Shown: in pieces, positions 1,550-19,979 of the stretch
Position numbering within the stretch: the first letter of the stretch is position 1
How the letters are laid out: the number at the start of each line of letters is the position of its first letter
Origin: Candidatus Tenderia sp.
GTDB lineage: Bacteria > Pseudomonadota > Gammaproteobacteria > Tenderiales > Tenderiaceae
Assembly (NCBI GenBank): GCA_031416075.1
Contig: JANOSY010000033.1
Location: 1-44,335, forward strand
DNA length: 44,335 nt
Reading direction: 5' to 3'
The notes under the pieces: generated by a model
What the model saw: only the letters and a program-made list of their open reading frames with translations
Told to the model about the DNA's origin: nothing
The model's database searches: none
Translations under genes and position numbers: made by a program

Positions 1550-2737
1550 TCATATCTTTTTCCAGCTACGACTTCTGAAAATAACCATAATCAATAATGT
1601 AATTCTTGTTGGTAGATTTTGCACTCCGGGAGCATAACAAACATTGTTCCATACCCAACTTAGCAGCCTAAGGTAGTAGTATCTATTCTGGAATATTTTT
1701 TTTAGGCTGAAGGTACGGTCGTTATTTTTTTTGTGAGTGCTATTTAGAATTCGTTGGTAATTATCTTGCGCCACTTTTGGTATGGGTAACTCGAATGGCC
1801 AAGTAGAATGCATGAGCGTATGACTCATTAGCAGATATGTTATGAATGGTACTTCTAGTCGGTTTATCTTTGCTGTGTTTCCCCAATTTTTCCAGCTGAT
1901 TTGATTTGATCGTTGAGAAACTAATGTGGAGAAGTCAGCTAGTTGTAATAGTGAAATCTCACCTTGAAGAAATTCCCGTTTTGGCAGTAATGCGTGTGCA
2001 GTATTTAATAAGACTCTATCTTGCACAGATAATATTGACGTATTAAAACCATCAAGAGTAGCTTTTATTCTATTTTTCCATGCCTGTTTTGTTGGAATAA
2101 CTCTTCCTGCTTGACCATACGAAACATTAAAATGTATTTCAATAATGATCTTGGTAGTAGGGTGACGATACGCGGGTATCTGATGGTGACGTACATCTGT
2201 GGCTAGTCCATCCAAGGTCATTCCAGGGTCAGGTACCTCCACATAGTTCTGCGCTGTTAATATGGTTCTGCATCTGTTGATCTTGTCGGGGTGGACCAGG
2301 ATATCGAGATCCCCCATGACTCTTGCACCGGGATCCTCATAATAATTATCACAAAAAGTAGCTGCGCCTTTTAACAGTAAGCTGTCTATATTATGTTTTT
2401 TAAACTCTGTCAGCAGTTTAATTAGGCCATCTTTAAGGGTATTGTTACGTTGAAGGTTGTTTTGATAAGAGTTTACAATGATTCTCTGTATTGGCTTGGG
2501 TAGCAGAGTGAATAGACCATGCTGTCGTAATCTTACATGCAATAGAGGTGTGCAGCGTTCGGAGCCTGACAACCTTAGCAGGTTTATCCATATAATTTTT
2601 TCTTTGCTGATAATGTCACGTACTAGATCTATTTTTTCAGCTTTAAGATGAGGTGATAACAATAGAGCTAATAGTTTATAGGTGTCTATTGTTGCCAGTT
2701 GACCGGTCTCTGGGTTTTTCAGTGATTTATTAGGCAT
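1550..2737 (-). CDS. Nucleotidyltransferase family protein (NTP_transf_5-like)
   Basis: LLLKGAA...Y..PGARVMGDLDILV and IEIHF motifs; start ATG 2737 (alternative GTG 2749) overlaps the stop of the upstream ligase gene. Confidence 0.85.
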   Translation of the reverse strand: MPNKSLKNPETGQLATIDTYKLLALLLSPHLKAEKIDLVRDIISKEKIIWINLLRLSGSERCTPLLHVRLRQHGLFTLLPKPIQRIIVNSYQNNLQRNNTLKDGLIKLLTEFKKHNIDSLLLKGAATFCDNYYEDPGARVMGDLDILVHPDKINRCRTILTAQNYVEVPDPGMTLDGLATDVRHHQIPAYRHPTTKIIIEIHFNVSYGQAGRVIPTKQAWKNRIKATLDGFNTSILSVQDRVLLNTAHALLPKREFLQGEISLLQLADFSTLVSQRSNQISWKNWGNTAKINRLEVPFITYLLMSHTLMHSTWPFELPIPKVAQDNYQRILNSTHKKNNDRTFSLKKIFQNRYYYLRLLSWVWNNVCYAPGVQNLPTRITLLIMVIFRSRSWKKI

Positions 2738-4172
2738 GTTCAGAATCACTGACTTTACCTGATGAGGCTATTAAACCAATCGCTAGTAGGATATAAAAAT
2801 ATACAGCATTGGTTGGTATGTAAAAGTTTAACTCTACATTGGCGTGTATTAGCATGGCCATTACTCCAATGAGAACTCCAAATAGAATGCCTGTTATTAA
2901 TGGGGGTTGCTTTCTTCGTATTGCGCTTACAATTTTTATAATAATTAGTAAGAGGCTGGCGCCCAGTATGGAAAATCCTATAATGCCTTGATCAGAGATA
3001 AGTTCGAGATAGTCCATGTGTACATGTGAATACATTGGGCTGGATCCAATTCCAGAATCAGTATAGGTAGTGCGTACATTTTTATAACTCCCAGCGCCTG
3101 AACCGAACAGCGGGTAATCCGAGATTATTTTGTAGGCTGTGACCCTGCTAAGGTCCCTGCCATTTTCTTGTAGCCCCAGATCATTCAGTCTGTTGGATAC
3201 ACTACCCATGCCTGTCCATATTGAAATTACCATAATTAAAAAAGATATCGTTAGCAGGATAATTGTCTCTCTTGATTTTATGCCGCGAAATATAATTACG
3301 CCTAATGATGCGATGATAAAGGAGATATAAAATGCTCCATTGCCGCCCCGCGATCCTGTAAAAAAAAGCGCGGTGAGTGATACAAGTAATATTGCCGCAG
3401 TAAATGCCCTTGGCGACATTAAAAATTCTATTATTGTAACGAGAGAACGGTTTGTTTTACTTTTATGCGATTGTGGTGATGGTCTTGCGAATAATAGCCC
3501 CATGCCCAAGGGGATGGTCATTTCTAGTAGGCCTGCAAAATGGTTGTAATGTGAATATGTTCCCCTAACCGTTTTTCCCCAATTATTGACTATATCCCAT
3601 GGCGGTTGCGAGTCAATAAGACTATAAGCCCCTAGTGTTGAGTAGTTGAGGAGAGAATAGAGAGATTGCAGTGCGCCAACAGAAAACAGGACGATGACTA
3701 ACTGTTTTAGTCTTCTTTGACTGTGAGTAAGTATAAGCACGAGCAAGAAAATCGCGATGTAGCTACAGTTTTTTATAAATTCGGCCAATGTGCGATCTGG
3801 AGTTATTGTCAGTGTGAAAGAGCTCTGGTTTCCACCTACGCTCGTATAGTCGTGAACTGTTTTTGCTGAAGGGCTGATCACTTCAAGCAGTTGCTCGGGA
3901 AATCCTACTGTTTGTATAAATTGAAGAATCAACCCGGTAATTAATAGGCAGATGGGGAGTTTGTTTAGGGATATTACTTTTGGTAATGCTCTGTTGCTAT
4001 TCCAGTGCATTAGCAAACTGATAGAAAGCAACATAAATGCCAGTGTGCCAAATAGGCTGTACGCCCAGGGAGACTCGCTCGCGTGGGGGATTGGTATCCA
4101 GACAATCAACATAAGCAGGGCTATAAAAAGGTAGTGATCATTTACGCGTGTTGAGTTGGTGCTGATCATCAT
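2730..4172 (-). CDS. O-antigen ligase / Wzy_C family membrane protein
   Basis: Many TM segments; GTYSHYNHFAG, TGSRGG, YPLFGSGAGSY and HVHMDYLE motifs. Confidence 0.85.
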   Translation of the reverse strand: MMISTNSTRVNDHYLFIALLMLIVWIPIPHASESPWAYSLFGTLAFMLLSISLLMHWNSNRALPKVISLNKLPICLLITGLILQFIQTVGFPEQLLEVISPSAKTVHDYTSVGGNQSSFTLTITPDRTLAEFIKNCSYIAIFLLVLILTHSQRRLKQLVIVLFSVGALQSLYSLLNYSTLGAYSLIDSQPPWDIVNNWGKTVRGTYSHYNHFAGLLEMTIPLGMGLLFARPSPQSHKSKTNRSLVTIIEFLMSPRAFTAAILLVSLTALFFTGSRGGNGAFYISFIIASLGVIIFRGIKSRETIILLTISFLIMVISIWTGMGSVSNRLNDLGLQENGRDLSRVTAYKIISDYPLFGSGAGSYKNVRTTYTDSGIGSSPMYSHVHMDYLELISDQGIIGFSILGASLLLIIIKIVSAIRRKQPPLITGILFGVLIGVMAMLIHANVELNFYIPTNAVYFYILLAIGLIASSGKVSDSEHA

Positions 4173-4918
4173 AGTTGATTCTTGTTTGTGATTGCTTTGT
4201 TGAGATGGTTTTTTTGTTGTTCATTTTCGATAAGTGGCACCAGCTCTGCTGTCCAACCATACTCTACAGCGGTTTTGATTGTTGAGGGCGCAAGCCGTGA
4301 GTGATAGCCGAGCGCTTGTTTGACTACGTTCTTGAAATCTACTTTTACCGACTCAGGAAGTATCTCCCAGTGGGATATTCCTAAAGGAATGACCTGCTGT
4401 TGGTTTAGAACTTCATAGGGTTCAAAGTGAATGGCCCTTTCTAAAGCTTGTACAAATAAATCGTTGTTTTGATTCGAATCCGCATAGTTTTGTGCCAATT
4501 TGGCCCAGGCGAGTCCCCATGTTGGCCGTTTTTTTATAGTGATTAATAAGTTTCTCAATGCCTGATCTTGGTATTGTTTTTGATCGAGACTGGAAATTTG
4601 AGGGGCGTTTGCTTGCAGTGTGGCTAGGCGGGCGAGGTCCATATAGAACTCGGCATTATTGCTGTTAAGTATGGTCGCTTTTTGTAAGCGGCCCCATGCT
4701 TCTTTGGCTGCATGCTGATCAATAGTAATTCCTGTTGTTTCCCAGTGGGTAATGTTATGTCTAGGTGTGATGACAAGTATTTCTGCATATCCCCACAGGG
4801 CTGACCACACCATAAAGATAGCACTAAGGATCCCCGCTACAAGATAGGACCATCGATTGACTGATGCAAGATAGGACCATCGATTGACTGATGATAGTTT
4901 GGGAATGTTGTTACGCAT
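4169..4918 (-). CDS. VpsP-like polysaccharide biosynthesis protein (TM + TPR-like)
   Basis: N-terminal TM, helical repeats, RPTWGLAWAKLA motif, position between the phosphatase and ligase genes. Confidence 0.6.
   Translation of the reverse strand: MRNNIPKLSSVNRWSYLASVNRWSYLVAGILSAIFMVWSALWGYAEILVITPRHNITHWETTGITIDQHAAKEAWGRLQKATILNSNNAEFYMDLARLATLQANAPQISSLDQKQYQDQALRNLLITIKKRPTWGLAWAKLAQNYADSNQNNDLFVQALERAIHFEPYEVLNQQQVIPLGISHWEILPESVKVDFKNVVKQALGYHSRLAPSTIKTAVEYGWTAELVPLIENEQQKNHLNKAITNKNQL
4840..4893. repeat. Perfect 27-bp tandem duplication (CAAGATAGGACCATCGATTGACTGATG x2)
   Basis: Read directly; gives the repeated peptide SVNRWSYL. Confidence 0.95.
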
Positions 4919-5629
4919 TTATTGTAGTTTTAAGGCAGGTGCATTGGCCAGGATTTCTGCCTGTGATTGCCCGATGATTTTACTAGCCGCGTGTATGCCT
5001 TCGCTCAGGTTGGGTGGTCGGTATTTGAGGTTATGACAATCAGAAGCTATTAACTCTACCTTGCCATCCATCAATAAATCTGTGGCTAGTTGTTTTGCTT
5101 GTTTGCCAAAACTGCCAGTGATGCTAGAGCTGGTGATCTGTAGGGGGCAACCCGCATCCAAAAACGGTTTTAGTTTGGTTGGGGCTTTTTGGAATGCGCG
5201 ATTCCTTTCGGGATGAACGAGAATGGGCATGATCTGTTTTGTGCGTAACCAGTGAATCAGGTTAGTTGTGCCTGCGGGAATATCGTTGGGTGGCAGCTCT
5301 AGCAGAAAACATTTTTGTCCGTTCCAGGTGCCGAGCCACGGTAGAGTATCTGTTTCAATCATCTGCATGATCTGTGGGCCAATATGTACTTCAGCGGCCA
5401 GGTGAAGTTTAATGGGAATCTCTTCAGCCTCTACGACCATACGAAACATCTCAAACAACCCGGTGAGCTGTTTGAGATTGTTTTCAAAACGGTTGGTTTG
5501 TATGTGTGGTGTAAGGACCTGAGTTAGAACTCCGTCTTGAACGGCGATGCGCAACATTGCAATGGCATCGTTAATACTTTGCACACCATCATCCACGCTG
5601 GGAAGTATGTGGCTGTGTATGTCGATCAT
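4919..5629 (-). CDS. PHP-family tyrosine-protein phosphatase (CpsB/CapC-like)
   Basis: MIDIHSHILPSVDDG, TPH, HPERN and ASDCH motifs. Confidence 0.92.
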   Translation of the reverse strand: MIDIHSHILPSVDDGVQSINDAIAMLRIAVQDGVLTQVLTPHIQTNRFENNLKQLTGLFEMFRMVVEAEEIPIKLHLAAEVHIGPQIMQMIETDTLPWLGTWNGQKCFLLELPPNDIPAGTTNLIHWLRTKQIMPILVHPERNRAFQKAPTKLKPFLDAGCPLQITSSSITGSFGKQAKQLATDLLMDGKVELIASDCHNLKYRPPNLSEGIHAASKIIGQSQAEILANAPALKLQ

Positions 5630-5753
5630 TGTAGTATGAGCTGCATGTTTTGGACTTTATATGGAATACAGTTAGCAATCAACTCTCAACCTCCCGTATA
5701 AGAAATAAAACACCCTCATCATGAGGTTGTCGGGGGATGGGTGAGCAGTAAAT

Positions 5754-5780
5754 CCGTCCATCCTTCGATAGGCTCAGGAC
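5754..5780. repeat. Fragment of a dispersed REP/MITE-like repeat (CCGTCCATCCTTCGATAGGCTCAGGAC)
   Basis: Near-copy at 20361-20385 (CTTTCGACAGGTTCAGGACGAACGG); short inverted piece at 10253-10262. Confidence 0.6.
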
Positions 5781-5812
5781 AAAAATAAATTGTTCTACAG
5801 ACTCTAGAACAA
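5781..5812 (-). terminator. Putative intrinsic terminator after wzc
   Basis: Minus strand TTGTTCTA-gagtctg-TAGAACAA followed by TTTATTTTT. Confidence 0.5.
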
Positions 5813-5833
5813 CCGGAACTAATCAGAGCCGCC

Positions 5834-8107
5834 TCAGACCGGTTTTTTAGTGGCTTCTGGTCTGCGATCACCATAATAACTGCCATCGTAATAGTAATGA
5901 CTGCCGTAGGCTTCCATCCGTTTTACATCTACTTGAGTTAATACGGTGCCTGTAATTTGAACGCTACCCTTGCGCAATCTGTTGATGGACTCTTGTGTCA
6001 TTTGAGTCTTTGTGGATTCTGCCTTGACGGCAAGAATCACGCTGTCAACCATATGCCCCACTACGATTGCATCACTGACGGCTAGCAGCGGTGGGCTATC
6101 CAGGACGATGTAGGTATACATTGTCTTTAGTTTTTCCAACAGTTGCTTGAAAGCATCTGATGATAAAAATTCGATTGGGTTAGGCGTAAAGCTTCCTGCT
6201 GGTATGACATAGAGCTTGCTATTCTCGCCGCCAATTTGGGTGATGGCATCTTCTAGTATCGATTTTTTATTCAATGCTTGATCAGAGAGACCGGGGATGG
6301 GGTTCATGCCCAGATATTTGGCGATAGAGGGTTTGCGTAAGTCTACTTCTAACAGCAGGGTGCGATCCAGATGACTCAGTGACGCGGCCAGATTTGTGGC
6401 CAGTGTTGATTTGCCCTCCATTGCAGTGGCGGAGGTGACTAGAATGGTTTTTGGAGGATTATCGATGTTGGAGAAGAGTAATCCTGTACGAATATTGTTT
6501 ACGCTTTCGGCAAAAGGGGAGCGGGTATCAAATATTACCTGTTGCTCTGGTTTGATCGATTTTCTGCTATGTTCTACTAGAGGAATCACTCCCAATGATG
6601 GCAGTTGCAGCTTCTCTTCAAGATCCTCGATGCTCTTGAAGGTATTGTTTAGGTGCTCGCGCAGGAAAGCAAACAGTACTCCTATAAACAGTCCAAGCAC
6701 TACTGCAGCCATAATAAAACGTGGTTTGTTAGGTTTGAAAGGAGTTTTTGGTACAAGGGCTATGTCAATTATCTGTATATTGGAGGCGTCATATTTTTCG
6801 GAGATATTGGCCTCTTGATAACGGATGAGGAATGATTCGTATGATTTTTGATTATTGAGTACTTCACGTTCCAGACTGGCAAGTTCAAAACTACTGCCTC
6901 TTATGCCGCCTAAGTCGCTTTTTTCTTTGTTGATAAGTGCGTTGATCTCTTTCTCTTGGGTAAGTGCGGCCTGGTACTCTTTGCGTATGCTGTCGACAAC
7001 CTTGTCTACTTCAATTTCAAAGTTCTGTTTGGCTTGGTTGAGGTCTGCCCGTGCGGCGACCATTTTCGGATGTATCTCACCATAACGTTCAGAAAGTTCT
7101 TTCACACTGCGTGAAAGCTTGGTCATCTCCTGTTCTAGTGCCTGAACTGAGGGTTTGTTGAGTATTGGGCTTAGGGTGGTGTAGTCACCGTTTTCATATT
7201 TTAAACGGATTTGCTCGTAGCGGATTTCGGCTTCGCTGCGTTTGGTTTGTGCGCGAATCAGTTCGGTTGACAGTGTGGACAGACGTGTCCCCGCGAGTTG
7301 CTGCTGTTGGGTGGTGTCGACCATAGAGTGGCTCTTCTGGAATGCTTGTAGTGCTGCTTCTGAAGCTTTGAGTTTGCTCTTTAAGTCGCTCAATTGATCA
7401 TTCAGCCAGATGGATGTCTCTTTAGCACCACTGCTGCGTGATTCGAGTCCGTATTCCATATACGAATCTGCAATTGCATTAACGATGTCCGCGGCGAGCT
7501 GCGGATCAGAGTCCTCATAACCGATATTGATTATTTGACTCTGTTTGCCACCATCAACCTTGAGACCGGCCTGAATTTTACGGGCCAGTGTTATACGTAG
7601 GACATCATCACTTGGTTCAGGTATTGGCTCGGCTGTTTCGCTGATGGGTAACCAACCTTTAATCTGTTTAACAAGGGCGATATCTTTTATCTGTTGAATA
7701 AATGCGGTTGACTGCTCTTTGTTGGCGTTGGTTAATTGCCCCGCCTTGTACCGTGCCACCAGATTTAATCTTTCGACGGCCTTTTGGGCGATGCGTTGTG
7801 AGCTGATTATTTCGTATTGTGTTTCATAAAAGAGAAATACTAGCGCTGTGTTAACGTATTGATCTCGAGTATTAATGTTGGGTTGTGTTGGATCTGCAAC
7901 CAATTTGGTCTCTGCTTTATATACCGGGGTACTATTCAACGCGGCCAATATACCAATGATCAGGCAGACTAGTGTGATATTGAAAATACCAAACTTGTGG
8001 CGTTTGATGACTCGCCAGTACTGGCCAATATCAATGTTCACTTCTTTAGTTGAAAGGGAGTAATTGAGTGGCTGAATAGAGTTGGGGGTATTGGCTGTGG
8101 TTTTCAT
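5834..8107 (-). CDS. wzc: Polysaccharide co-polymerase / BY-kinase (Wzc/GumC/VpsO-like)
   Basis: Two TMs, coiled-coil periplasmic domain, PxxPFKP, Walker A SATAMEGKST, EVDLRKP, LDSPP and C-terminal Tyr cluster YGSHYYYDGSYYG. Confidence 0.93.
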   Translation of the reverse strand: MKTTANTPNSIQPLNYSLSTKEVNIDIGQYWRVIKRHKFGIFNITLVCLIIGILAALNSTPVYKAETKLVADPTQPNINTRDQYVNTALVFLFYETQYEIISSQRIAQKAVERLNLVARYKAGQLTNANKEQSTAFIQQIKDIALVKQIKGWLPISETAEPIPEPSDDVLRITLARKIQAGLKVDGGKQSQIINIGYEDSDPQLAADIVNAIADSYMEYGLESRSSGAKETSIWLNDQLSDLKSKLKASEAALQAFQKSHSMVDTTQQQQLAGTRLSTLSTELIRAQTKRSEAEIRYEQIRLKYENGDYTTLSPILNKPSVQALEQEMTKLSRSVKELSERYGEIHPKMVAARADLNQAKQNFEIEVDKVVDSIRKEYQAALTQEKEINALINKEKSDLGGIRGSSFELASLEREVLNNQKSYESFLIRYQEANISEKYDASNIQIIDIALVPKTPFKPNKPRFIMAAVVLGLFIGVLFAFLREHLNNTFKSIEDLEEKLQLPSLGVIPLVEHSRKSIKPEQQVIFDTRSPFAESVNNIRTGLLFSNIDNPPKTILVTSATAMEGKSTLATNLAASLSHLDRTLLLEVDLRKPSIAKYLGMNPIPGLSDQALNKKSILEDAITQIGGENSKLYVIPAGSFTPNPIEFLSSDAFKQLLEKLKTMYTYIVLDSPPLLAVSDAIVVGHMVDSVILAVKAESTKTQMTQESINRLRKGSVQITGTVLTQVDVKRMEAYGSHYYYDGSYYGDRRPEATKKPV

Positions 8108-8109
8108 TT

Positions 8110-8715
8110 TTAGAAAAAGCTCTCTTCTACCGTGATGATATCACCGGGCCGAATGGGTGTGGCAAGTTCAACACGTTTGGCATTGCCTTTGTCTTCTTCA
8201 TGGGCGAGGGTGATTTTGTTTTTTGATGCACGTTCAGAAAATCCGCCGGCCAGAGTGATAGCGATTTCCACGGTTAACCCCTCACGGTAGTTATAACCAC
8301 CGGGTTTTTTGACCTCACCGTTTACATAAAACTGCCGGTATTCGATGATGGAGACTGTGACGGCTGGTTTTATTAGATAACCGGCAGCAAACGATTGGGC
8401 TATTTTTTCTTCGGTTTGTGCAGTTGTTAGACCCTGTATCTGCACTTGACCAAGCAGTGGAACGGAGATGGTGCCGTTAGTTGCGATGCGTGTTTTTACC
8501 AGACTCAGGTCAGGTTCCCCAAAGATGGTGACGGAGATTTCATCGTCTGCTGAGAGAGTGTAGCTGTTTTTGCTATCGGCGCTGGCACTGTTGATAAAGA
8601 GGAATATGAGTGCGATGGCAAATAGCAGCTGTATTGCGTTGAGATATGCAGGCTGGCGTGACTCTAGCAACGGCGGTTTAAAATGAGTCTGAAAACAATG
8701 CAAGGTATTTTTCAT
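8110..8715 (-). CDS. Short periplasmic polysaccharide export protein (OPX, Poly_export + SLBB; VpsN-like)
   Basis: YTLSADDEISVTIFGEPDLS, GTISVPLLG, VNGEVKKPGGY, AGGFSERA and PGDIITVEESFF; true start may be downstream. Confidence 0.9.
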   Translation of the reverse strand: MKNTLHCFQTHFKPPLLESRQPAYLNAIQLLFAIALIFLFINSASADSKNSYTLSADDEISVTIFGEPDLSLVKTRIATNGTISVPLLGQVQIQGLTTAQTEEKIAQSFAAGYLIKPAVTVSIIEYRQFYVNGEVKKPGGYNYREGLTVEIAITLAGGFSERASKNKITLAHEEDKGNAKRVELATPIRPGDIITVEESFF

Positions 8716-9060
8716 CTCTGGTTAATCCGAGTTCTAATAAAAAACTATTTCAATAGTAGTGGAGCCTTTGGTTAGATCAGATCCGTCCATCTGTCAAAGG
8801 GGTGAAGAGTAGCCAGCTGTTGTGTCAAACAATTTTTGATGTCAATGAACGGAGCAGGGCCATAAATATCAACTCTTGCTATTTATAAACACTTTATTGC
8901 CAGGTGGCTGTCGTCTTATAGCAACAAAAAGCCGCAAAATCAGACGATTTTTCTCTGTTGGCGATTTTACTATATAAATGGTTAAAGATAAACAGATAGG
9001 CTGGCTTTTGATGGCTGGTCATATTATTTGCTGGTCGATGCCGGTGAGGTTGGTTTTTGT

Positions 9061-10245
9061 TTAATTGCCAAATTGTGCTTGTGCCCCAAACATAATCGCG
9101 TTTGAGGTGAAGTCAAAGATGTTGAGGTCGGAATCCCTCGCGGTATGGTTATAAGTGGCGCTGAGGTGCAGCCAGGGGAGTAGGCTGTATTGGGTCTGAA
9201 GCCTTAAGTTTAGGCGGTTCTCGCTAATCACGTTGAGGTCGTCGGTTTTTGCGCTGGTATAAAATGCGCCGACAATAAAGGCCATGCGTGGTGTTGTCAT
9301 GTGTGTTATTTCGGTGTGGATGTGGTTTTGGATGTAGGCCTTGGAGTTGGCTTGCAGTGACTCCTGGATATCACGAATGGCACCAATGGTGATATTTGTA
9401 TAGCTGTTTGGCTTCCAGGTACCATCCAGCCGCAACATGAGGATGGAGGTGTCTTTGTATAGGCTGTTGTTATAGTTCCTGTTGAGCGCACCAATCTGGA
9501 ACAGGGCCGTGCTGATGGTGCTGATGTCCCAAGTGATACCGGTTAGGAGGTTCTGCTCATTGCTGCTTGGATCGACGGTGGGATTGGTATTTTGATAGTC
9601 GATGTTTGTGGTGCTGAGCTCAAAAGGTATACGGGTTTTAGGGGCCACACGGTAGTAAAACATGCCGGTGATGGTTGTGGAGTTCAGATCAAGAAACTGC
9701 TGGTTGTTATTGGTGTAGCGGAGCTGTTTATGGTTGAGCTTGGTAATGAGCTGGCCCCGGCTTGAGGGGTTACCATAGGAGAGAGTGATTTTTGCATAGT
9801 TTTCCCGCCAGCGGTTGGTGGTAGTGGTGAGATTGGCGGTGACGTTGTTGTCGTCCGGGGTGTTGTGGTCGCGAATCTGGCCCATCTCATATTCACTGTT
9901 TAGACGAATGCTGTGGTCAAGCAGCAGTTTGGTCGTCAGGCGGTGGTCGTTGTAGTTGAGTATATTTTGATCCTGATACTGCCCATAGGCACCCTTGTAG
10001 GTCAGGTCGAGTGAGTGTTTTCCAAAGCCCCATAATAAGGGGAGAGTGGGTTTTATGAGTAATAGCAGGTCACTCTGTTCGTTCTGTGCTGGGGCGCGCC
10101 TGACATTATCTTCATATTGCAGCTGTGTGGCGAGCTGTGGCTGAAAACCGGTGCTGCCGGTGATTGCCAGTGTGGGGTGTATGACAAACAAGGGTAGCAG
10201 GCCGATGAGTTTGATGAGGTGGCCATTTGTCTGTCTGTGTATCAT
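9061..10245 (-). CDS. Outer-membrane beta-barrel protein of EPS locus (VpsM/EpsX-like)
   Basis: Signal peptide, YEDNV motif, alternating beta strands, near-terminal Phe; upstream of short OPX and wzc. Confidence 0.8.
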   Translation of the reverse strand: MIHRQTNGHLIKLIGLLPLFVIHPTLAITGSTGFQPQLATQLQYEDNVRRAPAQNEQSDLLLLIKPTLPLLWGFGKHSLDLTYKGAYGQYQDQNILNYNDHRLTTKLLLDHSIRLNSEYEMGQIRDHNTPDDNNVTANLTTTTNRWRENYAKITLSYGNPSSRGQLITKLNHKQLRYTNNNQQFLDLNSTTITGMFYYRVAPKTRIPFELSTTNIDYQNTNPTVDPSSNEQNLLTGITWDISTISTALFQIGALNRNYNNSLYKDTSILMLRLDGTWKPNSYTNITIGAIRDIQESLQANSKAYIQNHIHTEITHMTTPRMAFIVGAFYTSAKTDDLNVISENRLNLRLQTQYSLLPWLHLSATYNHTARDSDLNIFDFTSNAIMFGAQAQFGN

Positions 10246-10398
10246 GCTTGCTGTCCTGAGCCGTATACAACCTGCTGGTAACTTTGGCGTGGTTGCTGTT
10301 TAGCTGGTGTTGAGAGTGATTAGGGCGTCATTTTAGCATGCAAGTTTTAGCATGGAGCGCTGTTTTTATGGGTTATTTTTTCTCACAAGATGTTATGA

Positions 10399-12078
10399 AT
10401 GAAGTTTAAATATTTCTTAACGTATCTCACGCCTCACCGATCAGTCCTATTTCTGGCGGCGTTGTTTATGCTGGGTGAGAGTGCGGTGGCGCTGTTGATC
10501 CCCTGGGTTGCAGGCCAGTTTGCCATGGGAGTTGTGGGTGATAGCAGTGTATGGGGGCTGGAGAGTGGCCAGATTCTATTGCTGCTGTTGCTGGTATTTC
10601 TGTGCCAGGCGCTGTTCCGGTTTTTGAATAGCTATTTGATCACTCGGAGTGGTGCAGAGGTCCTGGCGCAGCTGAGCTTGCGTCTATACGAACATCTGCA
10701 GTCGCTACCCATGGGGTACTTTCATGCAACCAAGCGCGGTCAGGTGTTGGCGCTGTTGAGTAATGATGTGGCGATGCTGAGCCATTTTGTTACAGGCACC
10801 TTGATTGGTCTTGTGCCCATGGTGATGACGCTGGTGGGGGCGATTGTCTTGATTGCACTGATTGATTGGCAGATTGCGTTGCTGATCCTGCTGCTGACCC
10901 CGCTCTTTTATATCACCCTGAAGTTGATGAGCAGAAAGATTCGTCCGGTCTCGTCGGCCTTGATGCAGCGGCAGGCGGACCATCTGTCCGTATTTGAGCA
11001 GAGTCTGAGCCTGTTGTCGCTGATCAAGGCGTTTGTGCGCGAGCCACTGGAGCTGCAACGGTTTGCATCATCCACCCAGGCGGTACTGCAACTGCGGTTG
11101 CAGCAGTTGCAAATGCAGTCGGTTCTGGCCCCGGTTGTACAGCTGCTGGCGTCACTGGGGATTTTGGCGGTGCTCTGGCTGAGCAGTCAGCATCTCACAT
11201 CAGGCACACTCACCGCCGCTGAGCTGGTGGCTATTCTATTATATGGACTGCTGTTTGCCCGGCCGATGAGTGGTTTGGCAAACCTATACGGTGATATTCA
11301 ACAGGCCAGGGGTGGTGCGGAGCGGCTGCTGGATATTTTTTCTGTTGCCCCGGAACCGATGCAGAGTGGTGCGCTTGAATTTGGGATTGGGATTGGCCCC
11401 GCCCGTGGCGAGATTGAGTTTCACGATATCCATTTCCACTACCCCGGTGCTGAGCCACTCTTGAGCGGGCTGAATTTTCAGATTCGCGCTGGTGAAACCG
11501 TGGCGCTGACTGGCGTGAACGGTGCCGGAAAGAGCACTTTGATACAGCTGTTAATGCGCTTTTTTGATCCGCAGGGCGGAGTGATCCGGCTCGACGGTAC
11601 CGACATCCGTACCGTGACGCTGGCAAGTTTGCGGCGGCAGTTTGGTCTGGTGGCCCAGCATGTGCTGCTATCGGATGTGAGCATTGCCGATAATATCGCC
11701 TACGGCAAGCCGGGGGCCAGCCAGGCAGAGATTGAGGCGGCGGCCCGCACCGCCAATGCCCACGGTTTTATTGCTGCGCTGCCGCTGGGGTATCAGACGA
11801 TGGTGGGAGAGCAGGGCGTGCGGCTATCGGGCGGGCAGCGGCAGCGGCTGGCACTGGCCCGTGCACTGTTGATCCAACCGGCCATTTTAATCTTTGATGA
11901 GGCAACCTCGATGTTCGACCCGGAGGGCGAGGCGCTGTTTCTGCAAGAGTGCCACGAGCAGTTGCGGAGCCGTACCGTTATAATCATCACCCATCGCCCT
12001 GCCACGTTGGCGCTGGCAGATCGGGTGATGCAGCTTAAAGATGGGCAGTTAATAGAGGTGGAAAATGACAAACTATAA
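10399..12078 (+). CDS. ABC exporter, fused permease/ATPase (lasso 'D'-type, no C39 peptidase domain)
   Basis: TM domain + Walker A GVNGAGKST, LSGGQRQR, IFDEATS and THR. Confidence 0.93.
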   Translation: MKFKYFLTYLTPHRSVLFLAALFMLGESAVALLIPWVAGQFAMGVVGDSSVWGLESGQILLLLLLVFLCQALFRFLNSYLITRSGAEVLAQLSLRLYEHLQSLPMGYFHATKRGQVLALLSNDVAMLSHFVTGTLIGLVPMVMTLVGAIVLIALIDWQIALLILLLTPLFYITLKLMSRKIRPVSSALMQRQADHLSVFEQSLSLLSLIKAFVREPLELQRFASSTQAVLQLRLQQLQMQSVLAPVVQLLASLGILAVLWLSSQHLTSGTLTAAELVAILLYGLLFARPMSGLANLYGDIQQARGGAERLLDIFSVAPEPMQSGALEFGIGIGPARGEIEFHDIHFHYPGAEPLLSGLNFQIRAGETVALTGVNGAGKSTLIQLLMRFFDPQGGVIRLDGTDIRTVTLASLRRQFGLVAQHVLLSDVSIADNIAYGKPGASQAEIEAAARTANAHGFIAALPLGYQTMVGEQGVRLSGGQRQRLALARALLIQPAILIFDEATSMFDPEGEALFLQECHEQLRSRTVIIITHRPATLALADRVMQLKDGQLIEVENDKL

Positions 12079-12334
12079 GATCCAGGACGATGTCTTCCTG
12101 CAAAAAGTGGTGAACGAGACAGTGATTCTGGCCCCGGAAACCGGCAATTACTTCTCCCTTGATGAGGTGGGTAGCCGCATGATTGAGCTGTTCAGACAGA
12201 CCGGTTCGATAGAACAGACCGTTGCCGCCCTGGTGCGAGAGTACGATGCGCCACAGGCGGATATCGAACGTGATCTGCTGGCGCTGCTGGAGGATATGGC
12301 CCAACAGGGTGTTGTTGAGAAAATTGAATCTTAA
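12065..12334 (+). CDS. PqqD-family RiPP recognition element (lasso B1)
   Basis: 89 aa; ETVIL...GNYFSLDEVGSRMIEL...LVREYDA...DLLALLEDM..QGVV pattern. Confidence 0.9.
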   Translation: MTNYKIQDDVFLQKVVNETVILAPETGNYFSLDEVGSRMIELFRQTGSIEQTVAALVREYDAPQADIERDLLALLEDMAQQGVVEKIES

Positions 12335-12779
12335 GCTTGATCGCCTGTTTAGCCTGCCAGCCAAAAGCTACCCACTGCTGCTGGAGGCGTGGCTAACCCT
12401 GGCCTGGATCGATCTGACTATCCGTTTTGTTCCCTATGCCCACTGGCGTCACTGGCTAGAGAGCAGCGCGTCGCTTCGGCGCATCGATCAGCCAACAGCG
12501 GATATTGAGGGGTTAATCCACACCTCAGAGCGGGTTGCCAGACACCACTACGCTGCCATGAACTGTCTGCGGCGCACTGTGGCACAGAAGATGATGCTGG
12601 CGCGGCGTGGTATATCGAGTCAGGTCCACATCGGGGTGAAAAAAGAGCAGGCCGGTTTTGCCGCCCACGCCTGGTTGAGCTATCAGGGAGAGGTATTAAA
12701 CGATTCGGCAGATGTAACTGAGCGCTACGTAGAGCTGGAGCGGGCGCTCTGGCGTAGCGTGAAATTTTTTACGGATTAG
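12324..12779 (+). CDS. Lasso peptide biosynthesis B2 protein (transglutaminase-like leader peptidase)
   Basis: NCLRR...LARRGI....IGV.....FAAHAWL Cys-His motif; probable TTG start at 12324 overlapping B1. Confidence 0.88.
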   Translation: MNLKLDRLFSLPAKSYPLLLEAWLTLAWIDLTIRFVPYAHWRHWLESSASLRRIDQPTADIEGLIHTSERVARHHYAAMNCLRRTVAQKMMLARRGISSQVHIGVKKEQAGFAAHAWLSYQGEVLNDSADVTERYVELERALWRSVKFFTD

Positions 12780-12788
12780 ATTTTTTAA

Positions 12789-12812
12789 GTGTAGTAGTCG
12801 CGACTACTACAC
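12789..12812. repeat. Perfect 24-bp palindrome GTGTAGTAGTCGCGACTACTACAC
   Basis: Read directly; lies between convergent B2 and fic. Confidence 0.9.
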
Positions 12813-12847
12813 ATCAATGACGACTAATATTCGCTTTTCAGCCTCCC

Positions 12848-12883
12848 TCATGACATCGATATGGAAGGGATGATCCTTGTCAT
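12848..12883 (-). pseudogene. Possible 5' stub of a YeeB-like DEAD/DEAH helicase (MTRIIPSISMS*)
   Basis: ATG overlaps fic stop (ATGA); peptide resembles recalled 'IPSVSV' N-termini of YeeB-like helicases; very short. Confidence 0.3.
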
Positions 12884-14022
12884 ATCTGTTGCCTGAAAAT
12901 ATCCAGATAATCCCGGAACACGAACAGCCGGTTGCGGCGTTGCCCGGTGACTTCCTCCAGCACGCCAAACGTTACCATGTCGCCGATCAGTGCCGCCGCT
13001 GTGTTGGTGGAGGCGCGGGTAATCTCAATCGCCCCTTTCACATCGATGACCGGCCTTGCATAAAGCTGCCGCATCAACGTCTGCGCATTGTCCTGGCGGC
13101 GTGCGCTGAAGCGGGGCAGCACCTCCCGTTCGATGCGCTGCTTCAAACCCAGCACGGCGCGGAACACCGAGGCCGACGCGCGCGCCGTCTCCTCCACGCC
13201 AAACACAAAGAACACCAACCACTCGCGAAGATGGTTGCCCTGTCGCACCGCCATCAAGCTATCAATATAAGCGGTCTTGTAGCGTTCGAAATAGTCCGAC
13301 AGGTACAGCGCCGGCTGGTGCAGCAAACCTTCGGACGCCAGATACAGCGAAATCATCAGCCGCCCCAGACGCCCGTTGCCGTCCAGAAACGGGTGAATCG
13401 TCTCGAACTGATAATGGGCGATGGCGATGCGAACCAGCGGATGCACGAACATGTCGTCCGCGTGAAGGAATCGCTCCAGGTCGCTCATCAACCCAGGCAC
13501 ATGTTCGTGATGCGGCGGCACAAACACCGCGTTCTTCAGGCTCACGCCGATCCAGTTCTGGCTGACGCGAAACTCGCCCGGCTGCTTGCGCTCGCCGCGT
13601 ACGCCCGCCATCAACACCGCGTGGGTCTCGCGCAGTAGCCGCGACGACAAGGGTAACGTTTGCAGCGCCGCAATTGCGGTGTTGATCGCACGAATGTAGT
13701 TTTGCACCTCCGCCCAGTCGTCACGCTGCTCCGGATTCAAGTCGGCGGCGTCCTTGAAGGCGTCCTCAATATTGGTTTGTGTCCCCTCGATCCGGCTGGA
13801 CTGGGTGGCTTCCTTCGCCACATGCATGCGAATGAAAAAGTTGATATCGGGAATCAGTTGGCTGAAGGCATTCAGTTCTCCCAGGGCGCGGTCGGCACGC
13901 CCCAGCAAATCGCTCAATTCCGGATCGGCAACCACCCATTCTTGGCAGATCGGTTCGGGCAGAAAGGCTTGGTATTCGTAGCGGCTCTCATAGTGACCCG
14001 CCCGAAAATCAGCAATATTCAT
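12880..14022 (-). CDS. Fic family protein (class II; N-terminal domain + Fic + C-terminal HTH-like)
   Basis: Canonical HPFLDGNGRLGR; N-terminal inhibitory motif SSRIEG; C-terminal EEVTGQRRNRLF. Confidence 0.95.
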   Translation of the reverse strand: MNIADFRAGHYESRYEYQAFLPEPICQEWVVADPELSDLLGRADRALGELNAFSQLIPDINFFIRMHVAKEATQSSRIEGTQTNIEDAFKDAADLNPEQRDDWAEVQNYIRAINTAIAALQTLPLSSRLLRETHAVLMAGVRGERKQPGEFRVSQNWIGVSLKNAVFVPPHHEHVPGLMSDLERFLHADDMFVHPLVRIAIAHYQFETIHPFLDGNGRLGRLMISLYLASEGLLHQPALYLSDYFERYKTAYIDSLMAVRQGNHLREWLVFFVFGVEETARASASVFRAVLGLKQRIEREVLPRFSARRQDNAQTLMRQLYARPVIDVKGAIEITRASTNTAAALIGDMVTFGVLEEVTGQRRNRLFVFRDYLDIFRQQI

Positions 14023-14144
14023 ATGTCAGAAACCCCATGGCTTTCTATAATAACCGGTACTTTATGTCAGATCATGCCCGCCATGCAATCCTTATGTCAG
14101 AAATAGGGGTAGTTAGTGACATTAGATGCGACCTAATGTGAGAA
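14022..14144. promoter_or_regulatory. Repeated TATGTCAG(A) motifs upstream of fic, putative operator sites
   Basis: Copies at 14022, 14063 and 14093, plus inverted TGACATTA (~14117) and degenerate TAATGTGAGA (~14134). Confidence 0.4.
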
Positions 14145-14168
14145 GAGGTCTCCCACGATAGAACCCGA

Positions 14169-14252
14169 TCAAGGTTTTCTACGTATTCTCGCAGCACTTT
14201 TACCACCGCGCCCGGCGGTCATCTTGGTATAAAACTCAAACAGTTTTTCCAG
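14169..14252 (-). pseudogene. 3' stub of an MmeI/YeeA-like DNA methyltransferase (LEKLFEFYTKMTAGRGGKSAARIRRKP*)
   Basis: Manual translation matches recalled C-terminal motif RLEKLFELYTKMT plus basic tail of MmeI/YeeA-type enzymes; no start codon before the motif. Confidence 0.5.
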
Positions 14253-14265
14253 TGCAAACCATCTG

Positions 14266-16137
14266 TTACTGGCCAAAAACAGCGGCGTATTTCTGAAACC
14301 AGATCTGGGCCATCAGGGCGTAGAGCAGGTTGACGTTGAGTGAGCTGGCGGGATTTTTAACCACCGACTCAAAGACGCCAAGCAGCTGCTGATTGTTGAC
14401 CAGCCCCATCTCCTGGAGCCGGGTGTCGGAGAGGATGGCGCGCACGGTGTTGTGCTGGTCGCGAATAATCTGGCCAAAAAAACCATCAAATATAATTTTC
14501 TTTTTGTTCCAGCAGACGCTGTCGGGCAGCCGTCCGTTCATGCTGCGGCGTAGTAGCCACTTGGGGTAGTTGTGGCGCAGCCAGAGGTCATCGGGGATGG
14601 CAAAGCTGAATTCGAGCAGACGCCGGTCAAAAAATGGGTGGCGTACCTCGATGCCAAACCCAGTGGCGGTTTGATGGTAGGAGCGTACTGAATTGATGGT
14701 GGATGTATTTGTCCACGCCTGATAACGGGCCTGCAGGGCGGGGTTGGTGAAGCGCGGGGCGTTTTCATTTGGGGTGTCGTTGCTGTTTTGCAGCAACATC
14801 TGTCGAGCGGGTTCCGCCATCCAGGACGGGAGGGTGGCGCTGGCGGGGCGGCCCAGTGCGGTGCGCAGGCCTCGTTTGATCGGGGTGGGGATCAGCGGCG
14901 TTACAAACAGGTGTAACAGCGTATTCAGCAGCGGTAGCTGCATCTCTCTGCAGCCACTGACTGCCTCTTGAATGGCCCGCAGGTCACCACGCCGCAGGCG
15001 CTGTGAGTAGGTTAGGCTGTGGCCCCAGGTCATCTCATCACCACCGCTGCCTGTGAGCAGAACATCGGCACCTATCTCTTTGAGTAGTTTCATCTCGTCC
15101 AGATAGCGTGGGGAGCAGACGGTGCCAGGGTTGTCGAGTGTGGGGGCGTATAGCTCCCGGAAGTCGAGTGCCAGATGCTGTTCTGCCGCCATGTAGTGGA
15201 TGTGCGGGAGGCCGAGGTGCTGTTGCATCTCTTTGATGCGGTCGCTCTCGTCACAACTGGCGGTTTTCTGGTAGGTGTGGGAGATGACGGCGAGCTGTTG
15301 CGGGGTTGATTCCGTGAGCTGTTTGGCCAGGGCTGTGACGGAGGTGGAGTCCATGCCGCCGCTCATCTGTGTAGCGATGGTGGTGGCGGTTGAGCCCATG
15401 CGGTCGCTGACGTTGCGGGTGAGTATGGCGGTGAGCTGCTCTTCATAATCACCAATGGAGGGGTGGCGGATTGTGAAGGTGGGGTCCAGCTGCCAGTAGC
15501 GCTGGATGTGAATGCCGTTGGCATCGGCCTGCAGTGAGTGCCCGGCGGGCAGCAGTTCGACACCTTCAAACATCGAACGGTGTGGGTCGGGCCAGCCACT
15601 CAGCCAGCAGGCCAAGGCGTATCGGTTGAGCTGTGCGGTGATGGCACGCTGTTGCAGCAGTTGGCTCCCGTCGGTGGCTATATATGTAGAGTCACCCACA
15701 CGGGTATAGCTGAGGGTTCGCATATTCATCACATCCCGTGCGGCAAACAGGGTGCGCTTTTCTCTGTCCCAGAGGGCAAAGGCAAAATCGCCGATCAGGT
15801 GCGTCGGGCACTGCTGGCCCCACTGGCGGTAGGCGGCGAGGATGAGTTCGGCGTCCGTGGGCTGGGCGGAGAGGGGTGTAGTGTGTAGCTGTTGTAACAG
15901 CTCTGGCCGGTTATCGATGCGGGCATCGCAGATCAGCAGATATTGGCCACAGGCGGAGAGCAGCGGGGCGGCGGCCAGGGGTGAGAGCGGTGCGCTGTGG
16001 TTGAGCTGTTGTGAAAAGGCCAGCGGCCCCTGGATGTGGGTGGTGCTGTTATCTGGCAGTGAGCGGGTGAAGGTATCAATAACATCGGCACTTAAGGGTG
16101 CATCACGCCAGTCAATGATCGCCGCAATGCCCGACAC
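14266..16137 (-). CDS. Asparagine-synthetase-like lasso cyclase (C protein)
   Basis: DARIDNR, GDFAFALWD, SGGMDST ATP motif, LTGSGGDE and RHPFFDRRLLEF. The N-terminus MSGIAA lacks the Ntn catalytic Cys of true AsnB. B1/B2 are nearby. Confidence 0.85.
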   Translation of the reverse strand: MSGIAAIIDWRDAPLSADVIDTFTRSLPDNSTTHIQGPLAFSQQLNHSAPLSPLAAAPLLSACGQYLLICDARIDNRPELLQQLHTTPLSAQPTDAELILAAYRQWGQQCPTHLIGDFAFALWDREKRTLFAARDVMNMRTLSYTRVGDSTYIATDGSQLLQQRAITAQLNRYALACWLSGWPDPHRSMFEGVELLPAGHSLQADANGIHIQRYWQLDPTFTIRHPSIGDYEEQLTAILTRNVSDRMGSTATTIATQMSGGMDSTSVTALAKQLTESTPQQLAVISHTYQKTASCDESDRIKEMQQHLGLPHIHYMAAEQHLALDFRELYAPTLDNPGTVCSPRYLDEMKLLKEIGADVLLTGSGGDEMTWGHSLTYSQRLRRGDLRAIQEAVSGCREMQLPLLNTLLHLFVTPLIPTPIKRGLRTALGRPASATLPSWMAEPARQMLLQNSNDTPNENAPRFTNPALQARYQAWTNTSTINSVRSYHQTATGFGIEVRHPFFDRRLLEFSFAIPDDLWLRHNYPKWLLRRSMNGRLPDSVCWNKKKIIFDGFFGQIIRDQHNTVRAILSDTRLQEMGLVNNQQLLGVFESVVKNPASSLNVNLLYALMAQIWFQKYAAVFGQ

Positions 16138-16141
16138 GGCG

Positions 16142-18875: not shown

Positions 18876-18891
18876 CGACTATCAACTCCAA

Positions 18892-19902: not shown

Positions 19903-19939
19903 GATAATGGCACTCCTTGATGTGTGTGAGTCTAAATAC

Positions 19940-19979
19940 CAATGAGAACGATTATCATTATAAAGGACGGAGAGGTCAA
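19940..19979 (-). promoter_or_regulatory. Fur box overlapping a sigma70-like promoter of fbpABC
   Basis: Minus strand TATAATGATAATCGTTCTCATT resembles GATAATGATAATCATTATC; TTGACC-N17-GATAAT promoter. Confidence 0.85.

Follow-up and report, generated by a model that had tools for sequence, protein, structure and literature searches.

Why should genes for a lasso peptide stand head to head with genes that export a polysaccharide? The question arises on contig JANOSY010000033.1 of Candidatus Tenderia sp. (assembly GCA_031416075.1; Tenderiaceae, Gammaproteobacteria), where genes for an ATP-binding cassette (ABC) exporter (D) and two lasso maturation proteins (B1 and B2) are transcribed divergently from a block of exopolysaccharide (EPS) export genes and face a convergent gene for an asparagine synthetase-like (AsnB-like) cyclase (C). 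The window analyzed here is the whole of this contig (C33; 44,335 bp), one of the 95 contigs of a 3.49-Mb genome (G000). Annotation was based on a listing of open reading frames (ORFs) and on Pfam and NCBIfam scans of the window proteins. Comparisons covered a family set of 17 genomes (all of the order that were examined, seven of them at least 90% complete), a class sample of 400 scored Gammaproteobacteria genomes, and a metagenome scan of 17 loci. The relatives that carry the locus are G001, G003, and G014, the last being 77% complete and on a contig that stops within the export block.

The answer we favor, with moderate confidence, is that the window holds most of a complete, kinase-type (paeninodin-like) class II lasso peptide pathway that is interleaved, co-inherited, and probably co-expressed with a tRNA-adjacent EPS island of the Wzx/Wzy type. 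Production of the peptide and the polysaccharide would be joint, and both would act in a single surface or biofilm process and not in antibiosis, because the genes are gained and lost as one island, the genes for the precursor peptide (A) and its kinase (K) are in line with EPS biosynthesis genes, and the peptide core is near-invariant across many genera.

A complete lasso peptide gene set

Four genes of the window encode the maturation and export proteins:

10399 to 12078, plus strand: D, MsbA-like ABC exporter (ABC_membrane, ABC_tran), its 3' end overlapping the start of B1
12065 to 12334, plus strand: B1, PqqD-type recognition element (PF05402, 65.9 bits; cut-off 23.4)
12312 to 12779, plus strand: B2, transglutaminase-fold leader peptidase (Transglut_core3; NF033537, 69.3 bits; cut-off 33)
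14266 to 16137, minus strand: C, putative AsnB-like lasso cyclase (Asn_synthase and GATase domains; best match NF033535)

An original prediction, made from the letters of the window, had placed the exporter, B1, and B2 opposite the EPS block across a gap of 153 bp, and the ORFs and the Pfam and NCBIfam scans bear out this layout and the positions of all genes it named. Its family labels PqqD, Transglut_core3, Asn_synthase, NTP_transf_5, and Wzy_C also held in profile searches with hidden Markov models; the label VpsP did not, as its model scored 61.7 bits against a cut-off of 125.

Proteins 51–60% identical to D precede B1 and B2 in three metagenomic loci (L069, L070, and L071), and the NCBIfam scan also finds D to resemble MsbA, PglK, and HepA. 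The best NCBIfam matches of B1 are lasso PqqD chaperones (41–43 bits, under cut-offs of 70–80), and B1 is predicted to be the recognition element (RRE) that binds the leader of a peptide made on the ribosome and modified afterwards (a RiPP). For B2, the ORF listing gives a start at 12222, and a TTG at 12312–12324, overlapping the end of B1, is more likely. Its Cys85, His119, and Asp131/134 are invariant across four orthologues and, by analogy, would be the catalytic residues.

The cyclase had been described as a Cys-less AsnB-like protein about 1.5 kb away. The distance from the B2 stop to the C stop is 1,486 bp, and the protein begins (M)SGIAA and thus has no N-terminal (glutaminase) Cys; a Fic gene in the interval had been overlooked. 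The lasso cyclase model NF033535 is the best match of C (313 bits; cut-off 525) versus 158 bits for the XrtA/PEP-CTERM amidotransferase model, and cyclases of eight other B1/B2-linked loci score 155–486 bits on NF033535, all under the same cut-off. C is 38% identical over its full length (624 amino acids) to the cyclase of the compact lasso cluster L070 versus 25–31%, in partial alignments only, to AsnB paralogues of its own genome, so that it does not group with ordinary AsnB proteins. Sequence matches of C in the PDB are only asparagine synthetases and one hydroxyamidotransferase.

The two remaining parts, a precursor and an HprK-like kinase, are at the far end of the same EPS locus, on contig C31, so that the claim that B1, B2, C, and D form a lasso set can be extended to a genuine and complete one. 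K was reached through G003, where a 323-amino-acid protein with weak HprK_rel_A similarity stands beside a PEP-CTERM protein and upstream of the priming transferase; its orthologue on C31 is 94% identical. The best PDB matches of a K profile are HPr(Ser) kinases (E of 4e-6 to 1e-4). On TIGR04352 the G003 orthologue scores 29 bits (cut-off 200), and K of the source genome has no Pfam match at E ≤ 1e-4. Directly upstream of K, A encodes a 58-amino-acid product with the leader MIMATNDVVYNGDEAVSKKSYRKPEFKKVGSLAELTQ and the core GFAGSVPDEQGGQTKRNPFLG, joined at ...KKSYRKPEFKKVGSLAELTQ/GFAGSVPDEQGGQTKRNPFLG. Its motif layout, ...SYRKPEFKKVGSLAELTQ/GFAGSVPDE..., has YRKP as a YxxP motif, Thr at −2, Gly1, and both Asp8 and Glu9. 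The YxxP leader motif and the penultimate Thr are published recognition features (PMC13381572; PMC10368454, in the portions that treat leader recognition). A starts 4 nt after the stop of the PEP-CTERM gene and ends 36 nt before K, and this order of three genes is kept in all four carrier genomes. A, B1, B2, and K are each present in single copy in the genome.

Among the four genomes the core varies only at position 20 (L or Q), and the N-terminus of the leader is variable. Over the last 41 codons of A, synonymous and nonsynonymous differences to G000 number 10 and 0 in G003, 21 and 4 in G001, and 19 and 3 in G014; this codon comparison shows the precursor peptide to be under purifying selection. 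No conserved small ORF was found in the window gaps checked (the 153-bp gap, B2–C, and those between the outer-membrane polysaccharide export [OPX] and barrel genes and between the phosphatase and Wzc genes). A 23-codon ORF in the 153-bp gap, MQVLAWSAVFMGYFFSQDVMNEV, was rejected as a precursor: it is present in the window and G003, is lost in G001 and G014, and has no Thr at −2.

The families suggest how the pathway would run. B1 would bind the YxxP leader of the precursor, B2 would cut after Thr-Gln, and C would join Gly1 to Asp8 (or Glu9), giving a 21-residue lasso with a calculated mass of 2143.04 Da in G000 (Leu at position 20) and of 2158.02 Da for the variant with Gln at that position. 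D would export the lasso peptide, and K, possibly with the NTP_transf_5 protein, would tailor it away from the usual C-terminal Ser.

Might the same enzymes serve no peptide at all? B1, B2, and C could act on a polysaccharide or a protein, for example by amidating uronic acids as XrtA/PEP-CTERM amidotransferases do, while the ABC protein could flip lipid-linked sugars. The genome has five more AsnB-like genes (on C45, C14, C66, and C88), and contigs C45 and C14 carry three of these five, both exosortase genes, and Wzc-like genes, so the genome has at least three polysaccharide systems. This company, the likeness of D to MsbA, PglK, and HepA, and the PEP-CTERM features of the locus fit such a role. 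We nevertheless consider it highly improbable. The precursor is conserved, has the exact leader and core architecture of a lasso peptide, and is under selection; B2 passes the lasso cut-off; C is without the glutaminase Cys, and its score on the lasso model is roughly double that on the EPS amidotransferase model; and D, B1, B2, C, A, and K occur together without EPS genes in L070.

A near-invariant core

Homologues of A form at least 149 sequence clusters (E ≤ 1e-3), which NCBI names "lasso RiPP family leader peptide-containing protein" or "putative RiPP precursor". Carriers among the matches listed are Paraglaciecola, Catenovulum, Aestuariibacter, Parahaliea, Ca. Thiodiazotropha, Alteromonas, and Ningiella. 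Of 120 homologues listed (of the 149), 119 have a T-x/G junction and the remaining one has Ala at −2; a 21-residue core is found in all 120. Thirteen positions (G1, F2, G4, S5, D8, E9, G11, T14, K15, R16, N17, P18, and G21) are invariant in 119 of 119 listed, and the core consensus is GF[A/S]GS[V/I]PDE.GG.TKRNPF.G. Lasso cores are usually variable. A near-invariant core is unusual for a competition peptide, and one so frozen argues for a conserved cellular partner. Precursor A was not found in the 398 other class-sample genomes scored, nor in plasmids, and a search of the literature for the core and leader strings found no occurrence.

The exopolysaccharide locus

The left part of the window holds the following features:

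1 to 123: contig start; by synteny the locus continues on C31
124 to 1473, plus strand: SGNH/AT3 acyltransferase (Pfam SGNH, 108.7 bits; Acyl_transf_3, 29 bits, profile positions 210–325 only)
1550 to 2749, minus strand: NTP_transf_5 protein, candidate N (PF14907, 129 bits)
2730 to 4172, minus strand: Wzy_C-family membrane protein (PF04932, 46.7 bits)
4169 to 4918, minus strand: VpsP-like protein (NF038257, 61.7 bits, below the cut-off of 125; no Pfam match)
4919 to 5629, minus strand: CpsB/CapC PHP-type protein-tyrosine phosphatase (PF19567, 159.7 bits)
5834 to 8107, minus strand: Wzc-type polysaccharide copolymerase and tyrosine autokinase of the bacterial tyrosine (BY) kinase type (Wzz, GNVR, AAA_31; TIGR01007, 135 bits; cut-off 108)
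8110 to 8715, minus strand: short OPX (Wza-family) outer-membrane export protein (Poly_export, 77 bits; SLBB, 47 bits)
9061 to 10245, minus strand: EpsL-like outer-membrane beta-barrel, first gene of the export operon (BBP2_2, 104.7 bits; TIGR03014 EpsL, 97 bits; cut-off 275)
10246 to 10398: divergent control region of 153 bp with a tandem TTTTAGCATG x2

On C31 the order toward the contig end is uvrC, pgsA, two tRNA genes, the PEP-CTERM gene, A, K, and a Bac_transf priming transferase, continuing with genes for GDP-mannose dehydratase, an epimerase, a hexapeptide acyltransferase, FdtA, DegT, and two Wzx-like flippases. The set of Wzx/Wzy parts is thereby complete, with Bac_transf and two Polysacc_synt proteins on C31 and Wzy_C, Wzz/GNVR/AAA_31, Poly_export/SLBB, and CpsB proteins in the window. 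The NTP_transf_5 gene is the final gene of the export operon and converges on the biosynthesis genes.

The Wzy_C protein is only 41–42% identical between genomes of the same genus versus 69–98% for the products of flanking genes, a divergence that would be expected of a serotype-specific gene. It is the single such gene among the annotated ORFs of G003 (16 of 17 in L055:1-18666 plus L017:1-8649, with 11 ORFs of L055:1-11700 standing outside this set), and because of this it is probably needed as Wzy. We regard the protein as most likely the EPS polymerase, with a ligase role possible. The AT3/SGNH ORF covers just the final third of the AT3 domain; its start, preceded by an in-frame stop, is 123 bp from the contig end. 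From its domains it is likely an EPS O-acylation gene, possibly a truncated one or one cut by an assembly break.

The direct repeat of TTTTAGCATG has a 14-bp period (window positions 10331–10354) and is upstream of the ABC exporter gene. It is preserved in G003 and partly in G001, has no other exact occurrence in the window, and may be the site of a regulator; a search for it upstream of PEP-CTERM-A-K did not find it. Scans for promoters and terminators in both control regions yielded numbers in the range of shuffled sequences.

One accessory island

Within the family set, A, K, B2, and the barrel gene, which was used as the EPS marker for joint presence, are found in the same four of 17 genomes (G000, G001, G003, and G014), or in three of the seven of high quality, and the NTP_transf_5 gene is in three of the four carriers. 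In this respect the EPS and lasso genes act like a single accessory island. A profile search with an alignment of B2 across genome contigs returned only the three known relatives. DNA nearly identical to window positions 9000–16200 occurs in freshwater-sediment, sediment, and drinking-water metagenomes, and none of the listed datasets matching this interval is an RNA dataset.

Lasso genes occupy three places in this island, and the proposed pathway would draw on all of them: A and K at the upstream edge, between the PEP-CTERM gene and the priming transferase; the NTP_transf_5 gene at the end of the export operon; and D-B1-B2 with convergent C at the downstream edge. G003 has the whole array from PEP-CTERM-A-K to C on one contig (∼37 kb including an insert), and G001 has K through C on one contig, with K itself cut by the contig end. 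EPS genes separate K from D by ∼24 kb in G003 and by ∼20 kb in G001, and the lasso genes are therefore not one compact unit. The layout, in which the EPS operon diverges from D-B1-B2 and C converges on them, is kept in three other genomes down to a protein identity of 57–72%. Because the same arrangement is kept over such distances, the gene layout is, by synteny, beyond chance.

Conservation differs along the island. Identities to G003 are 41% for Wzy_C, 56% for the VpsP-like protein, 72% for the NTP_transf_5 protein, 80% for Wzc, 83% for the phosphatase, 89% for OPX, 95% for the barrel, 97.5% for D, and 96% for C, with D, B1, B2, and C ranging over 91–97%. The biosynthesis genes in the middle also differ, with pyruvyl transferase and heptose-nucleotide genes in G003 and DegT and FdtA genes in G000. 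Judged from these comparisons, the identity gradient is the pattern of serotype-type replacement in the center of a capsule locus.

The upstream edge has the features of an integration site. Two tRNA genes (C31; L060 11819-12083) are directly upstream of PEP-CTERM-A-K, and an Rfam scan of C31 found these two tRNAs only and no riboswitch. In G004, of the same genus, the pgsA-tRNA site is followed by unrelated DNA with an ORF that, as read from its NPPF motif, probably encodes a DNA methyltransferase. We suggest that the pgsA-tRNA site is where the island integrated. The right-hand border was sought through G010, G004, and G008; synteny is lost past pgsA, and in G010 it is not regained over 38 kb.

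The remaining features of the window are at or beyond the downstream edge:

12880 to 14022, minus strand: Fic-domain gene (Fic_N and Fic), filling the B2–C interval and outside the system
16142 to 20004, minus strand: ABC importer (binding protein, permease, and ATPase), directly upstream of C on the same strand
20 to 44 kb: housekeeping genes rdgC, suhB, the isc operon, ndk, rlmN, ispG, hisS, bamB, der, and a PBP gene

B2 and C are tail to tail without a Fic gene in G001 (27 bp) and G014 (6 bp), and in G003 they are separated by a 7.5-kb insert that carries an MmeI-type restriction-modification gene and genes for RhuM, a helicase, and a T5orf172 protein. Because the junction differs among these three genomes, the Fic gene is read as a local insertion at a hot spot, and C as belonging with D-B1-B2. 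C starts 4 nt past the importer ATPase gene, an adjacency shared with G003 and G001, and the importer may belong to the island. It is PhnS/T/U-like by NCBIfam matches below threshold. The best matches of its permease have 33–34% identity and are in G010 and G008, both without the island; none was found at threshold in G004 or G007.

Related loci

The B2 profile matched 14 further genomes among the 400 of the class sample, all distant. Fourteen B2 places in 13 genomes were annotated with Pfam (207 ORFs); the fifteenth, on a 4.3-kb contig of G038, was seen by tblastn only. An AsnB-like gene is nearby at seven of the 14 annotated places, an NTP_transf_5 gene at six, and an HprK-like gene at several. 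The one place of the 14 with Wzc/Wza-type genes within the fetched flanks is in G125 (C37; L047 7850-15329), where NTP_transf_5, B2, and PqqD (B1) genes and a possible P-loop kinase gene are beside genes for AT3, Wzc, Wza, and a low-molecular-weight phosphatase. This locus has no cyclase within 10 kb and may represent a peptide system that does without a cyclase and is set among EPS genes.

The metagenomic loci show several arrangements. L070 (B2 41% identical) is a compact cluster, D-B1-B2-C-A-K-x-NTP5, between plsY and tsaD, and its precursor has a related leader, ...KKTYNSPVLKKVGTLQELTR/GLGLSGID.... L069 (B2 52% identical) repeats D-B1-B2 with convergent C. In L071 (B2 47% identical), D-B1-B2 are tail to tail with Wzy_C and VpsP-like genes (32% and 28% identical to those of the window), which would be the same pairing of lasso and EPS genes in another arrangement. 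L072–L085 (B2 ∼34% identical) form one group in which, by tblastn, most have a cyclase, B1, B2, an ABC exporter, and an upstream gene for a BY-kinase-like ATPase, and about half have an HprK-like match. The only member of that group annotated with Pfam, L078, reads C-A-K-B1-B2-ABC, with a WxxP leader and a C-terminal Ser, and is flanked by BY-kinase-like, CapD, and glycosyltransferase genes. YxxP-type leaders were found by tblastn in L041, L044, and L045; a regular-expression search gave L070 only.

That homologues of B2 have EPS neighbors, as the original prediction expected, holds in part: the genes are interleaved and jointly present in four of 17 family genomes, and linkage is seen in L071 and G125, but in one of 14 distant loci and not in L070. 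By these gene neighborhoods, EPS linkage is recurrent, yet obligatory for neither partner.

Shared function or shared transport

Does the linkage reflect a shared function or only shared transport? An island whose polysaccharide genes recombine in the middle could have inserted in or beside an ordinary lasso cluster, the peptide then being a stand-alone product (a signal, an antimicrobial, or something else). Several observations weigh against a functional link and for such hitch-hiking or a looser association. The 11.4 kb of L070, the closest compact relative, contain no EPS gene, from which it follows that the pathway does not need EPS genes. Thirteen of the 14 distant B2 loci lack Wzc/Wza-type genes, and VpsP-like genes, found in 21 other class-sample genomes, are on a contig with a B2 match in none of the 21. 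Composition changes in a sharp step, with G+C of 0.38–0.50 in EPS genes and 0.45–0.47 in A and K versus 0.52–0.59 in D, B1, B2, and C (the importer is also on the high side), which fits an EPS island landing in or beside an older lasso cluster. The identity gradient is typical of recombination at capsule loci, the B2/C junction is an insertion hot spot, and the island is beside tRNA genes. Joint presence in four related genomes may be one inherited or transferred event and not four independent ones. K and the priming transferase are 336 nt apart, and the promoter and terminator scans did no better than shuffles, so that co-transcription is at most predicted. No overlap was found between the ends of C31 and C33, so their join in G000 is inferred from relatives only. 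Finally, the core ends ...NPF[L/Q]G, with a C-terminal Gly and not the Ser that is the substrate of known lasso kinases.

We consider pure hitch-hiking less likely than a shared function, though a serious rival. The split layout persists to 57–72% identity over two genera, with no re-clustering or loss of lasso genes. Linkage recurs in rearranged form in L071 and G125, and also in Bacilli, as described in the main text of PMC13381572. A core near-invariant in 119 homologues is unusual for a competition peptide.

The NTP_transf_5 protein and a possible covalent link

For pseudomycoidin, the account in PMC6993621 has the kinase PsmK phosphorylate the C-terminal Ser and the NTP-transferase PsmN be needed for adding one to two hexoses to the phosphate, in agreement with the earlier statement that NTP_transf_5 enzymes occur in clusters of this type. 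Iterative glycosylation of a mature lasso peptide by a glycosyltransferase is also on record (PMC11912497, in the part concerned with that enzyme). Could the peptide of the island, then, be joined to the polysaccharide? K would phosphorylate it, the NTP_transf_5 protein would help to add a sugar or nucleotide, and the product would carry, prime, cap, or anchor the polymer, possibly with the Wzy_C protein as ligase.

The PsmK and PsmN precedent makes such a hybrid conceivable, and the island contains genes for K, NTP_transf_5, and Wzy_C proteins. In the core, Ser5 is unchanged in 119 of 119 homologues. Four NTP_transf_5 homologues from the class sample, among the best-scoring, lean the same way: three are beside PqqD genes (L093 and L095) or AsnB-like and ABC exporter genes (L092), the fourth (L094) adjoins barrel and UDP-glycosyltransferase genes, and none of the four is in a Wzx/Wzy locus. 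The window NTP_transf_5 protein has 72–76% identity to its counterparts in G003 and G001, a divergence like that of the variable EPS genes; a sugar-adding gene in the serotype-variable part and an invariant peptide would suit a constant peptide with a variable sugar.

Its gene association leans to the peptide side, and its position and divergence lean to the variable EPS genes. The gene is 7.6 kb from D, behind six EPS export genes, and the protein is only 20–28% identical to the sampled lasso-linked homologues and to a second copy on C13; no relative by sequence was found in the PDB. A hybrid also has to contend with the lack of a C-terminal Ser, with a Wzy_C protein that evolves like a polymerase and is probably needed as Wzy, and with a dedicated exporter, D, which suggests a free secreted peptide. 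On this evidence we hold a covalent hybrid to be conceivable but quite improbable.

Comparison with known systems

The closest models come from Paenibacillus and Bacillus, whose clusters for paeninodin (pade) and pseudomycoidin (psm) occur both with and without the NTP-transferase N. In the published descriptions of these clusters, they share with the locus a split B1/B2, an AsnB-like cyclase and an ABC exporter, as well as an HprK-like K beside the precursor and an NTP_transf_5 gene in the neighborhood. They are compact, whereas here three blocks are separated by ∼20–24 kb of EPS genes. Paeninodin-like precursors have a WxxP leader (PMC13381572, main text) and here it is YxxP; pade and psm cores end in a phosphorylated Ser and here the core ends in Gly; and the host is a gammaproteobacterium. 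The window NTP_transf_5 protein is only 20–28% identical to the lasso-linked ones sampled here, a comparison that PsmN itself stands outside.

Kinase-type lasso clusters are known from Proteobacteria too, and their precursors share the C-terminal Ser (PMC8498205, in its treatment of these clusters). The type of Sphingobium yanoikuyae ATCC 51230 resembles the locus in its proteobacterial host, its HprK-type kinase, and an organization unlike the Firmicutes type; its precursors have a polyphosphorylated C-terminal Ser, lacking here, and the sections of PMC8498205 that describe it mention no EPS linkage.

The nearest parallel for the linkage is in Bacilli. The main text of PMC13381572 (Nat Commun 2026) describes capsular polysaccharide loci that have paeninodin-like lasso and LPP clusters embedded in them and reports that these clusters are up-regulated together with an EPS gene, leaving their role open and a role in biofilm formation untested. 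The shared feature is a peptide pathway with an RRE, an HprK protein, and an NTP-transferase inside a polysaccharide locus, and L072–L085 look like this embedded type. The clusters in Bacilli are described there as compact inserts, whereas here a Gram-negative Wzx/Wzy/Wzc/OPX locus with a PEP-CTERM protein is both bracketed by and interleaved with the lasso genes. The terms Proteobacteria, Pseudomonadota, and Gammaproteobacteria are absent from the main text of that article; its supplementary co-occurrence tables may list cases outside Bacillota. A literature search on lasso peptides and PEP-CTERM found nothing relevant, and one on NTP_transf_5/PF14907 found phosphonates only.

HPr-rel-A systems (PqqD_rel_X TIGR04353, HprK_rel_A TIGR04352, and NTP_transf_5) have the same three tailoring families as the locus and lack B2, a cyclase, and an exporter; with 29 bits on TIGR04352, the K of the lasso set is therefore not a member. 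The genome has a separate system of this kind on C13 (L057 2021-4400), with PqqD_rel_X, an HprK_rel_A protein of 373 bits (cut-off 200), and NTP_transf_5; the 6.9-kb contig carries neither a cyclase nor B2 nor an exporter. Linear phosphorylated peptide systems known from Bacillota look similar.

With PEP-CTERM/Eps and Vibrio polysaccharide (VPS) loci the island shares Bac_transf, Wzx, Wzy_C, Wzc, OPX, a phosphatase, an EpsL-like barrel, a PEP-CTERM protein, and a VpsP-like gene. It differs in that the equivalogs EpsL, EpsE, EpsF, VpsP, and PEP_O_lig_1 are all under their cut-offs, the phosphatase is of the CpsB PHP type, and there is no exosortase in the locus. The original prediction had called the locus VPS-like. 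Since NF038257 stays below its cut-off and the NCBIfam scan matched no other vps-specific model, this likeness is a resemblance only, and the VPS assignment did not stand.

What the arrangement would mean

That paeninodin-like clusters co-localize with capsule loci in Bacilli was already known (PMC13381572, main text). New here are the splitting of the lasso genes into blocks that bracket the locus, in a Gram-negative host, and a frozen core with a wide distribution. A genome-mining consequence follows: since 20–24 kb lie between A-K and the maturation genes, tools that look for clusters would probably return the part in the window as an orphan without a precursor.

The boldest version of a shared function would make the lasso peptide a dedicated component of polysaccharide assembly and not an antibiotic, either as a knot, phospho-glycosylated through the HprK-like kinase and the NTP_transf_5 protein, that primes, caps, anchors, or cross-links the polymer or as a matrix-bound signal that gates Wzc-dependent export. 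We put this forward tentatively and judge it to be improbable. If true, it would explain why lasso genes bracket the EPS locus and why they are present and absent together with the barrel marker.

Under the favored reading, of a complete lasso pathway inherited as part of an EPS island, the pairing of peptide and capsule, described so far in the main text of PMC13381572 only for Bacilli, extends to Gammaproteobacteria with Wzx/Wzy/Wzc/OPX machinery and can reach the point where lasso genes bracket the polysaccharide genes. Carriers of the same core include the culturable Paraglaciecola, Catenovulum, Alteromonas, and Ningiella, which makes it directly testable whether peptide and polysaccharide would serve one process at the cell surface.

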